DNA of 64,000 bases from Amoebidium appalachense (GCA_963693365.1 CAVNZM010000002.1:7160454-7224453); one strand, 5' to 3'; shown: positions 40,401 to 58,136, counted from the first letter of the stretch. Program-made: numbers and translations. The notes: a model not told the origin generated them from the letters alone.

Positions 40401-43400
40401 CAACTCTCAACCGCCCAGGTTCATTTAGTTTGAACCCTTATACATATCTTACCTCGGACTTTGTCATTCCCGAATAATCCCCGTCCTCGGTTCTGATGAG
40501 GCCCAAAAACTCCACAATCAACCCCTGCACAACATCGACATCCACCACCCCTGCAAACAAAAGAAAAAAGGCGAAGAAAAAAAAGAAAATGTTAGTGTTT
40601 CCATCGGGATTGTCTTGTTAAGCTTCCCTGTAGGTGAACTGTGTGTGCGTGCGTGCATGTGTGTGCGTGTGTCCGTGCATGTGTGTGTGTGTGTGTGTGT
40701 GTGTGTGTGCATGTGTGCGTGTGCATGTGCGCATGCATGTACGTGTGTGTGTGCGCGCGTGTGCGTGTGCTCGTGCGGATGGTGCCTGTGCGTTTTTACC
40801 TGCAGCCTCGTAGTCGGATAGGATCTCCAGGAGGGTCAGCTTGCGGAAGATCATACCGATGCCATACCTCAGCGCATACTCCTGCATACCAAACATTCCA
40901 GACAGGGTTAGGAATGTCCAGTCTTGACCAAAACAGCAAAACATCAATAGCTAGGGACGGGTAAGCAAAAGCAGGCGGGCCAAGGCAGGTGTATGGGGAG
41001 AGAGGGGGAGGGAGGGGGGGGGCTCTCACAAATGAAAATGCATTCTTACACAGTCTACATACAGTCACGCATGCTCAGAGTGCCCGTGATACACAAACAT
41101 GCACACAGTACCTGCAGTATGCACACGTGCACACAGTACCTGCATTACACACACGTGCACACAGTCCCTCCAGTATGCACACACACACACATGCACACAG
41201 TACCTGTAGTATGCACACACACACACATGCACACAGTACCTGCAGTATGCACACACACACACATGCACATAGTACCTGCAGTATGCACACACACACACAT
41301 GCACACAGTACCTGTAGTATGCACACACACACATGCACACAGTACCTGCAGTATGCACACACACACATGCACACAGTACCTGCACTATGCACACACACAC
41401 ATGCACACAGTACCTGCAGTATGCACAGGGTAGGCAGTGAGAGTGCTGCCGGGTAGAGCCCATTCCCGTCATTTCCAGCCACCACCGACGTAGGGCAGGG
41501 CATGGCCAAACCCCCAACCGTCAGCACGTCTCCACCGTGGCCTCCTGCTGCAGCCAATGCAAGTTCCTTCTCACGGTACTGCTGCCATGCCTGCATCCGT
41601 GTGCATGTGTGTGTGTGGTGGGGGGGGGAGGGGGGGGGGGGGGGGGAGGGGTTGGATGTGTGTGGGGGAGGGGGGAGGGGGGAGGGGGGGGGGGGGGGTT
41701 TGAATGCGTCAAAAAGTACGAAGTACACAAGAACAAACGGATAACATGATGCAGAATGCAAGCCATACATAAAGAGTATGCATAATAAGCAGAGCCCATC
41801 CTCAGGGGGGCCCCCGTCATCCACAGTACCCGAGTTTCGACCTATTCCCCTCGTTAACGAAACCCAAGGGGGGGAGGGGAAGGGGGAAGGGGAAAGGGAG
41901 TGGGGGGTACGTACGTGTGTGTGTAGGTGTGTGGTGTGTGTGGGTGTGGACGAGTTAGTGTAGGTCTGGGTGTGGGTATGGTTGTGCATGGGTGTGTGTG
42001 TGTGTGTGTGTGTGTGTGTGTGTGTGTGTGTGTGTGTGTGTGCATGTGCGCGTGGGTGTAGTGTGTGCGCACACGCATGTGCCCATGGTGCATGGAGTGG
42101 GTGTGTGTGAAAAGAATGCGGGAGGTCATAGAAGTTGGAAGGGACGATTGATGAATGGGATGGGAGCGGAGGGGAGGGGGGGCGAGAAAGAGGGGGAGCG
42201 GGGGTAGAAAGATGAGATTGGCCAGAGATGGTCTGATCAGAATACTCCGTACTAAGAACATGAAGAAGCCACGTGTCAAACTCACGTGCACACGTCCATA
42301 ATGGGCACCATGGTCACCCCAGAAGAAATACTCACATGTGAAGAGCTTTTTTTTTTTTTTTTTTTTTTTTTTTTTTTGGGGGGGGGGGGGGGGGGGGGGG
42401 GGGGGGGGGTATTTATAAGATATAAGCGACCATGGGAAGCAATAACCATTGAAACCCCACAACGACAAAAAACACAAAAAAGGCAGGGAGAAGGGGTGGG
42501 GGGGGAAGATGGGCGGGGAGAGAGAGAGAGAGAGAGAGGTAAGAATGGGTTACAAAATACCACAAACACCACGGGGAAAGAGGGGGGGGGGGGGGAGAGA
42601 GAGAGGGGAGGGGGAAGGGGGGGGGGGGGGGGGGGAGGGGTTGGATTTATCACCGACACCTACCCCGACACTCAGCTGGGCCTCCTCCCTATTTGCCTTG
42701 TACTGTTCAATCTCGCTCTGAATCAGTCTCCTTGCAAGGGTTGCATACATCCCGTGGTAGTCAGGCAGTGGCCGCTGCTTGAACCCGTCGCGAACGTACC
42801 TAATCTCTAGTTTCACGCACCAATCTTCACCTCCGCGATCCAGAATTTCCATGCGGGATTGTCTGCGTTTAGGCATTTCCGGAACGAAGAGGTGGTTGGA
42901 TGCTTCGAGGGGTGGCGGTGGGGCGGATTCCAAGTTTTCCTCGGTCAGTTGGGAAGGTGTCTCCTCCTGAAAGGGGGAAAAAAAAGGGGGAGTAGAGGGT
43001 GTGTTTTTGTTTGTTTTTTTTTTTGGGGGGGGGGGGGGGGGGGGGGGGGGAAGGGGGGGAGGGGATGGAGAGAGAAGGGGCAGGGGGAGGAGGAGGGGCG
43101 GGGGAGGGGTGAGGGTGGAGAGATGTGGGGAAAGGGGGGAGGGGGGAGGGGGGAGGGGGATGGGAGGAGTGGGTGGGGGGTGGGGGGGGGGGGGGGGGAG
43201 GGGTTGGGGGAGAGGGATGTGGGGAGCAGGGATCAATGAATCAGCCTTAAGAGAATGGAGGGTAAAAAGGAAGCGTATAAAATCAGAAAACAAAATGCAA
43301 AGTAAACCGCGGAGCATACACAACCATGACATAACCAAAATACACCCAAAGAACTCTGCAAGCAAGAGACAGAGATAACTCGAACAGAGCCAATCATTAG

Positions 43401-58136: not shown

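Follow-up and report, generated by a model that had tools for sequence, protein, structure and literature searches.

The window, i.e. the whole 64-kb stretch of Amoebidium appalachense DNA that was analysed, carries on its minus strand a host gene (30500-57000) in which numerous short exons alternate with introns rich in C. A weak likeness to Munc13 was seen for one exon (E 0.77) and two other exons gave no match; the assignment of the gene as Munc13 is unproven. A host nucleoside transporter gave best matches of 45-53% identity, and the named proteins among the at least 120 matches listed were from animals, which suggests an animal-related, possibly unicellular eukaryote as host. On the plus strand (60695-62337) the frame of a YTH-like domain overlaps that of a PIN domain, perhaps as parts of one YTH-PIN gene with a short intron or a frameshift. 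The AT-rich region 28600-29220, with a tRNA match (29149-29210) and rRNA-like text, looks like an insert of organelle DNA. Repetitive DNA includes tandem arrays at 18797-19227 and 41065-41430 (units of ~107 nt and 26-28 nt) and, at 56939-57670, a ~380-nt unit of another repeat in tandem duplicate, with a minus-strand T-run at the end of each.

BLAST and nhmmer searches inside the window identified a further repeat family, comprising 13 related copies within 41686-56856, all on the minus strand (Table 1). The original prediction had described about 12 copies in the same orientation (41699-56855); the family, its coordinates and its strand were confirmed, but the number had to be revised, and the whole ~155-nt core is present in only five copies, the other eight being 5'-truncated pieces. 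The longest copy in the window reaches ~500 nt. As predicted, the copies form two subfamilies, A (7 copies) and B (6 copies), whose cores (47023-47176 for A and 46436-46595 for B) are 80% identical (128/160 columns). The proposed intronic location agrees with inspection by eye, i.e. with the presence of GT/AG-bounded exon-like stretches.

Table 1. Copies of the repeat family in the window and parts of the core of copy A47.
Feature	Position (strand)	Remarks
Longest subfamily A copy (A44), 5'-truncated	44506..45002 (-)	core intact (44590-44743); predicted cut 44672/44671
Subfamily A copy (A47)	46933..47220 (-)	core intact (47023-47176); predicted cut 47105/47104
Subfamily A copy (A56)	56613..56856 (-)	core 56703-56856, identical to 47023-47176; predicted cut 56785/56784
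Subfamily B copy (B46)	46322..46720 (-)	core intact (46436-46595); predicted cut 46522/46521
Subfamily B copy (B48)	48183..48545 (-)	core 48297-48455; lacks one G of CUGAGGA (G5); predicted dead
5'-truncated A copy	41695..41867 (-)	begins 2 bases ahead of predicted cut site
A tail, 5'-truncated	43620..43706 (-)	
A tail, 5'-truncated	46742..46804 (-)	directly 5' of B copy at 46720
A-like fragment, short	53582..53614 (-)	
B copy, 5'-truncated	44058..44204 (-)	
B tail, 5'-truncated	53653..53763 (-)	
B-like tail, diverged	48632..48768 (-)	74% to B
Shortest B tail	53478..53514 (-)	
Diverged copy outside the 41.7-56.9 kb range	22523..22587 (+)	after C-run; E 5.5e-8; blocks G and C with changes (U11.1, G9)
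Diverged fragment with CUGAGGA and tail	34487..34535 (-)	outside main range; E 0.003
A47 closing stem, 5' strand	47169..47175 (-)	pairs 47023-47029; pair probability 0.95
A47 inserted domain between A9 and G10.1	47142..47167 (-)	helix X 5' strand 47165-47167 (pairs 47033-47035; pair probability only ~0.2 in nested-fold model) and hairpin 47142-47162
A47 stem II 10.x strand	47135..47140 (-)	G10.1 = 47140; pairs 47078-47083
A47 stem I/II helix ('I' helix of type SGC)	47128..47134 (-)	pairs 47050-47056; layout as in PMC10085705
A47 block S	47102..47117 (-)	stem III 16.x strand 47106-47117; H17 = 47105 (GUU triplet); stem I 1.x strand 47102-47104
A47 sequence between blocks S and G	47084..47101 (-)	
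A47 block G	47063..47083 (-)	stem II 11.x strand 47078-47083; G12-A13-A14 47075-47077; stem III 15.x strand 47063-47074
A47 block C, first part	47037..47049 (-)	stem I 2.x strand 47044-47046; CUGAGGA 47037-47043

The flanks were originally said to diverge outside the core, which holds between the subfamilies (5' flank identity of 51%, i.e. chance level against a shuffled mean of 47%, and 47% for the first 3' flank) but not within them, where the flanks are alike; moreover, the last 40 nt are common to A and B (71% identity). The family is large, as seen from the numbers of contigs of sequencing run X1 that matched A (9,064) and B (4,226), depth not being equal to copy number. Contigs extend at least 250 nt upstream of the longest A copy, beyond 45002. 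The consensus of loose contig ends suggests an A-like subfamily with C-G at 10.5/11.5, although this consensus is unphased (agreement 0.63-0.77) and was not counted as evidence.

Eleven of the 13 copies start directly after a C-run, with scattered 5' ends, and ten of 13 share the same end motif followed by a C-run of 7-27. Scattered 5' ends, a shared 3' motif and C-run flanks together are the mark of target-primed reverse transcription into poly(C). The common orientation of the copies can be explained by the distribution of targets, since 63 of the 67 runs of at least 10 C/G in the 41.6-57 kb region are C-runs on the minus strand. Inverted repeats of a DNA transposon had been named at the outset as a possible source of the pairings; however, the two ends of the element do not form inverted repeats, and just one of them is constant among copies, which speaks against a DNA transposon or MITE. 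Head-to-tail tails were seen at 46804/46720 and 48768/48545, with partners belonging to another subfamily or only 74% alike.

Across the five full copies, the stems named in the original prediction pair in 199 of 200 cells. Two-sided changes, which had also been predicted, were present in 4 of 40 pairs and in none of the slid controls (the five copies represent essentially two lineages). Between A and B, one such change is seen in each of the hammerhead elements assigned below: stem I (G-C/A-U), stem II (U-A/C-G), stem III (U-A/C-G) and the helix joining stems I and II (U.G/A-U). Two-sided changes do not extend to the closing stem, the CCC/GGG helix (helix X) and the first hairpin, which are invariant in the five copies; since these never changed on both sides, the copies are uninformative on their pairing. 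The described pseudoknot (GACCTA/TAGGTC in A, GACCCT/GGGGTC in B) corresponds to stem II of a hammerhead, without its last pair being kept throughout: B48 has G opposite G, and on the B copy A lies opposite G in 14-66% of summed contig depth. Similarly, the long stem corresponds to stem III, and CTCATGT/ACGTGGG to the stem I/II helix of type SGC hammerheads. Stem I is 3 bp long in A and 4 bp in B (GGG/CCC and GGAG/CUCC), stem II 5-6 bp and stem III 8-12 bp. A contig of run X4 on 44607-44704 joins the two stem II strands directly, and the stem III of a third subfamily there keeps GGUC-GAAAC.

Nested folding gave a modest signal (z-scores of -2.2 for B and -1.4 for A). The nested scaffold of the model lies 7-10 kcal/mol above the minimum-energy fold, pseudoknots being uncounted, and pair probabilities in A under the nested-fold model are 0.33 for the hairpin and 0.07 for the I/II helix.

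If a non-circular arrangement of the strands is allowed, four of the five full copies (A44, A47, A56 and B46) contain all 13 conserved core bases and the three stems of a hammerhead ribozyme. The original prediction had called the RNA unclassified and stated that neither canonical fold completes; this is not the best reading with regard to the hammerhead, of which CUGAGGA and stem I had been missed. CUGANGA (C3-A9) directly follows stem I in four of five full copies, B48 being without G5, whereas (i) G12-A13-A14 between C11.1 and A15.1, together with the G10.1-C11.1 pair, and (ii) the A15.1-U16.1 pair and the NUH site (GUU) are found in all five. In A47, C11.1 is at 47078, A15.1-U16.1 at 47074/47106, and stem I is formed by 47104-47102 with 47046-47044. 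The suggestion of a possible ribozyme carried by a small mobile element is, at the level of sequence, supported.

HDV-like ribozymes are built from P1, P3/L3, P1.1 and a catalytic C in J4/2. The repeat core resembles them in having GG, a hairpin and a purine-rich strand ahead of the pseudoknot strand; however, P3/L3, P1.1 and the upstream P1 strand are absent, and there is no catalytic C in subfamily A, so neither the noted J4/2 resemblance nor a permuted HDV reading was upheld. Twister, pistol, hatchet, SECIS and box C/D readings did not fit by eye against the consensus, and other Rfam matches were at chance level. Further upstream in the longest A copy (44915-45000, minus strand), a GCGAA strand and stems with several broken pairs were noted, which resemble a decayed CPEB3-type HDV ribozyme.

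A descriptor of the split strand order matched only the four core places in the window, on either strand, none of 20,000 shuffles of each core and nothing in 30 window shuffles. Since it had been written after seeing the sequence, which would favour a chance likeness to a hammerhead in a DNA transposon or an unrelated folded repeat, the test was repeated with the four strands in any order, at any spacing and on either strand; 5 and 8 of 50,000 shuffles fitted (~1 in 10,000), and none with an 8-bp stem III. Chance would also sit well with the outcome of the Rfam search that had been called for, i.e. no match at gathering level in the repeat, but given the order-free control, the single fixed end without inverted repeats and the independent Naiad examples described below, we regard this explanation as largely refuted and hardly credible. 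At sub-threshold level, a weak partial alignment to Rfam Hammerhead_1 (14.2 bits, E 5.9) places stem II and then GAAAC in the same way as the split hammerhead. The split-order pattern had no matches in viral contigs or prokaryote genomes; one match in a metagenome scan lay inside a bacterial coding region and was rejected as chance. In the variant table on B no core base varies at 1% or more, which hardly discriminates, as only 7 of 191 places do.

The strands of the core follow the order stem II 10.x strand, site block S, GAAA block G, and stem I with CUGAGGA. Stems I and II are in contact through a 7-bp helix between their distal ends, one pair of which changes on both sides. The 10.x strand lies 5' of block S instead of following A9, so that the link from A9 to G10.1 consists of the 3-bp helix X, the closing stem and the hairpin, and the RNA's own ends sit in this inserted helix-plus-hairpin. 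The inserted helix and hairpin may stack end to end, in which case A9 and G10.1 would leave side by side and the core would close. As judged from its sequence, the RNA is of a kind that would work like a hammerhead, outside types I-III and not strictly SGC; it has neither the circularly permuted order nor the gathering score of the Rfam types I-III.

The closest published form is the non-circular type SGC (Eckert et al. 2023, PMC10085705). The repeat core shares with type SGC the block order S, G, C, a complete core, a helix that connects stems I and II at their distal ends, a U following A9, and a short link from the I/II helix to stem III, which Eckert et al. found hard to fit to the crystal structure, although their RNAs cleaved anyway. 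It differs in that block C, unbroken in type SGC, is broken between A9 and G10.1, with the 10.x strand moved to the 5' side and the SGC ends joined. Their scheme assumes unbroken core blocks, with at most 1-2 bases between A9 and G10.1. The SGC search patterns allow a stem I-II linker of 0-8 nt and require CUGAUGA, whereas the repeat core has linkers of 18 and 21 nt with a palindrome and CUGAGGA; the published patterns could not match it. Furthermore, SGC lengths are at most 104 nt (155 nt in the repeat core), and these RNAs were found in metatranscriptomes rather than in eukaryote genomic DNA.

A second strand, just after CUGAGGA, is also able to pair with the stem II 11.x strand, forming 4 bp in A and 6 bp in B. 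On this basis the RNA could be a regular hammerhead of type SGC in which two bases are inserted behind A9, the upstream strand serving as a decoy or switch, and Eckert et al. do permit one- or two-base insertions (PMC10085705). Stem II would then be weaker (-2.2 and -5.1 as against -6.7 and -8.7 kcal/mol), half of its pairs would be G.U with no two-sided change, helix X would be opened, and Naiad_EuTe has no such partner, the split form being clean there; we consider this arrangement very unlikely, and the split order is retained below.

Two other kinds of hammerhead were compared. The minimal type-I hammerheads of canonical Penelope-like elements and non-LTR retrozymes (PMC4209133; bioRxiv 10.64898/2026.07.22.740005) resemble the repeat core in their location in repeat tails, in an extra base between A9 and G10.1 and in palindromes, and dimer-dependent cutting of tandem transcripts has been proposed for them; however, they are circular permutations with a tiny stem III, whereas stem III of the repeat core is long (8-12 bp) and its stems I and II are pseudoknots. 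In the pistol-like pseudoknot (PK) hammerhead (PMC11300833) helix II is likewise formed as a pseudoknot, but the connectivity is other, helices I and III are standard, and the core is not described as split.

Inspection by eye of selected consensus tails in the supplement of Craig et al. (2021, PMC8557442) revealed the split layout in three tails of unrelated sequence, namely Naiad_EuTe, Naiad_Plae and the record preceding the latter, which is Naiad-2_Movir by metadata order. The Naiad_EuTe tail has, in the same order, helix X (4 bp), the hairpin (8 bp), stem II (6 bp), the I/II helix (5 bp), stem III (10 bp, with UUC), stem I (5 bp) and CUGAUGA; A9 and G10.1 adjoin the inserted domain directly, spacer bases being absent. 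At the level of sequence, the Naiad examples supply the covariation of helix X and the hairpin that is absent from the window. Reading by eye did not reveal this layout in the selected tails of Naiad_Dcar, Naiad_Ppla, Chlamys-1_cRei and Chlamys-2_cRei; the latter two are the (C)n-targeting ones among these, and their consensus ends run AA into C.

Chlamys Penelope-like elements are described as 5'-truncated, in many cases (C)n-targeting, and devoid of a canonical hammerhead (PMC8557442). The Naiad/Chlamys group as a whole resembles the repeat in 5' truncation with a fixed 3' end and in insertion into simple repeats. Naiads, however, prefer (TA)n, whereas the repeat lies in poly(C); no sequence likeness is claimed, no ORF was seen in the repeat copies, and the repeat's host is neither one of the green algae listed nor a recognised animal. 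No frame for a reverse transcriptase or GIY-YIG endonuclease was found among the 148 scanned of 423 candidate frames in the window, and no clear pseudo-LTR was present there. A 32-codon frame upstream of A (44908-45003) matched no Pfam family, its best Atlas value was 0.76 with no family, and none of four candidates scored; its two matches, both repeat proteins, were rejected, leaving it with no real relative, and its interpretation as a reverse transcriptase tail was dropped. In both full B copies (46590-46725 and 48450-48600, minus strand) one frame is open for 44-49 codons and stops at the TAA of the first closing-stem strand, which may be an ORF end.

These features point to a Naiad/Chlamys-type Penelope-like retroelement inserting in poly(C) runs as the likely carrier. 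The same ribozyme might instead ride on a LINE or SINE that prefers microsatellites: a constant 3' end combined with 5' truncation suits any target-primed element, and neither an ORF nor a clear pseudo-LTR was found in the window. We find this unlikely, as hammerheads in retroelement tails are a Penelope-like trait (PMC4209133), the same layout occurs in Naiad tails, and the Chlamys-1 and -2_cRei ends also enter C after AA. For the Penelope-like carrier, mobility would involve target-primed reverse transcription that starts at a G-strand nick, probably by an autonomous partner outside this window. We consider it probable that the core RNA contains every part of a hammerhead catalytic core, arranged in a split order that is not circular, within the tails of likely Naiad/Chlamys-type poly(C) retroelements, and with a predicted cut after GUU.

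That the RNA actually cuts after GUU appears probable. The role of cutting would be to reduce tandem element transcripts to unit length, as proposed for other Penelope-like hammerheads, and single copies in introns would be mostly silent. The 5'-truncated A copy at 41867 and the diverged copy at 22523, whose initial G-run might represent the first base downstream of the predicted cut, are too few to count. Two contigs of run X16, which may be an RNA run, end at 44670, two bases past the predicted cut, but are no sign of cutting, since a common variant at 44700 puts a 31-mer break there.

The copies end ~170-200 nt past the predicted cut, which indicates that their template was uncut at that site. 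This is compatible with a hammerhead-derived fold that no longer cuts and is retained as a signal at which the element's reverse transcriptase binds or primes. In a Penelope-like element of Anolis, mutating the hammerhead did not affect in vitro insertion, protein was required for cutting, and the site lacked RNA-seq read ends (PMC11167929). All catalytic bases are nevertheless kept between subfamilies with unalignable flanks, which is more than binding needs, and also in three Naiad families; a fold that has lost cutting is, in our opinion, improbable. By analogy with the in vitro data for Anolis (PMC11167929), it is possible that a hammerhead competent for cutting has a regulatory or idle role.

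In A, 6 nt separate the I/II helix from stem III, whereas the minimum-energy fold of B pairs almost continuously through both. Together the two would make up a single extended hairpin that carries the site and GAAA at the tip and CUGAGGA at the foot. The I/II helix must top stems I and II while stem III points away, so that a molecule acting alone would have to bend sharply or melt in part. From this geometry it is conceivable, with a chance slightly short of even, that two repeats of a tandem transcript dock antiparallel, tip to foot, which would remove the strain and would be in keeping with the dimer-dependent hammerheads of other Penelope-like elements. The palindromes in the linkers self-pair but also fold as hairpins, and were not counted as evidence of dimers.

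The published scheme of six hammerhead permutations rests on three unbreakable core blocks (PMC10085705), one of which is broken in the repeat core. In the literature searched, where subscription journals were thinly covered, no report was found of a hammerhead core split at A9/G10.1, nor of such a ribozyme in Naiad/Chlamys elements. Non-circular hammerheads have been reported from metatranscriptomes, metagenomes and one bacterium (PMC10085705), unlike the repeat core, which would represent such a ribozyme in a eukaryote's retroelement. As a tentative and rather doubtful extension, the RNA may represent a seventh natural hammerhead topology, i.e. an SGC core opened at A9/G10.1 and drawn into a long hairpin whose tip docks in the foot of a second copy, with cutting confined to tandem transcripts. 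It would then be the hidden ribozyme of the Penelope-like clade with an N-terminal endonuclease, here targeting poly(C) in a unicellular animal relative, and the dimer rule would be the reason why intact sense copies are tolerated in host introns. A domain accepted at A9/G10.1 would also offer a new insertion point for engineered switches.

The Naiad/Chlamys elements were reported to be without canonical hammerheads, some 'half cores' being left unexplained (PMC8557442). The split layout would account for part of this gap and explains why pattern searches missed such ribozymes. In File S5 of that source, near part 16, one Naiad tail can be read as a simple hammerhead of type CSG that includes a stem I/II helix.
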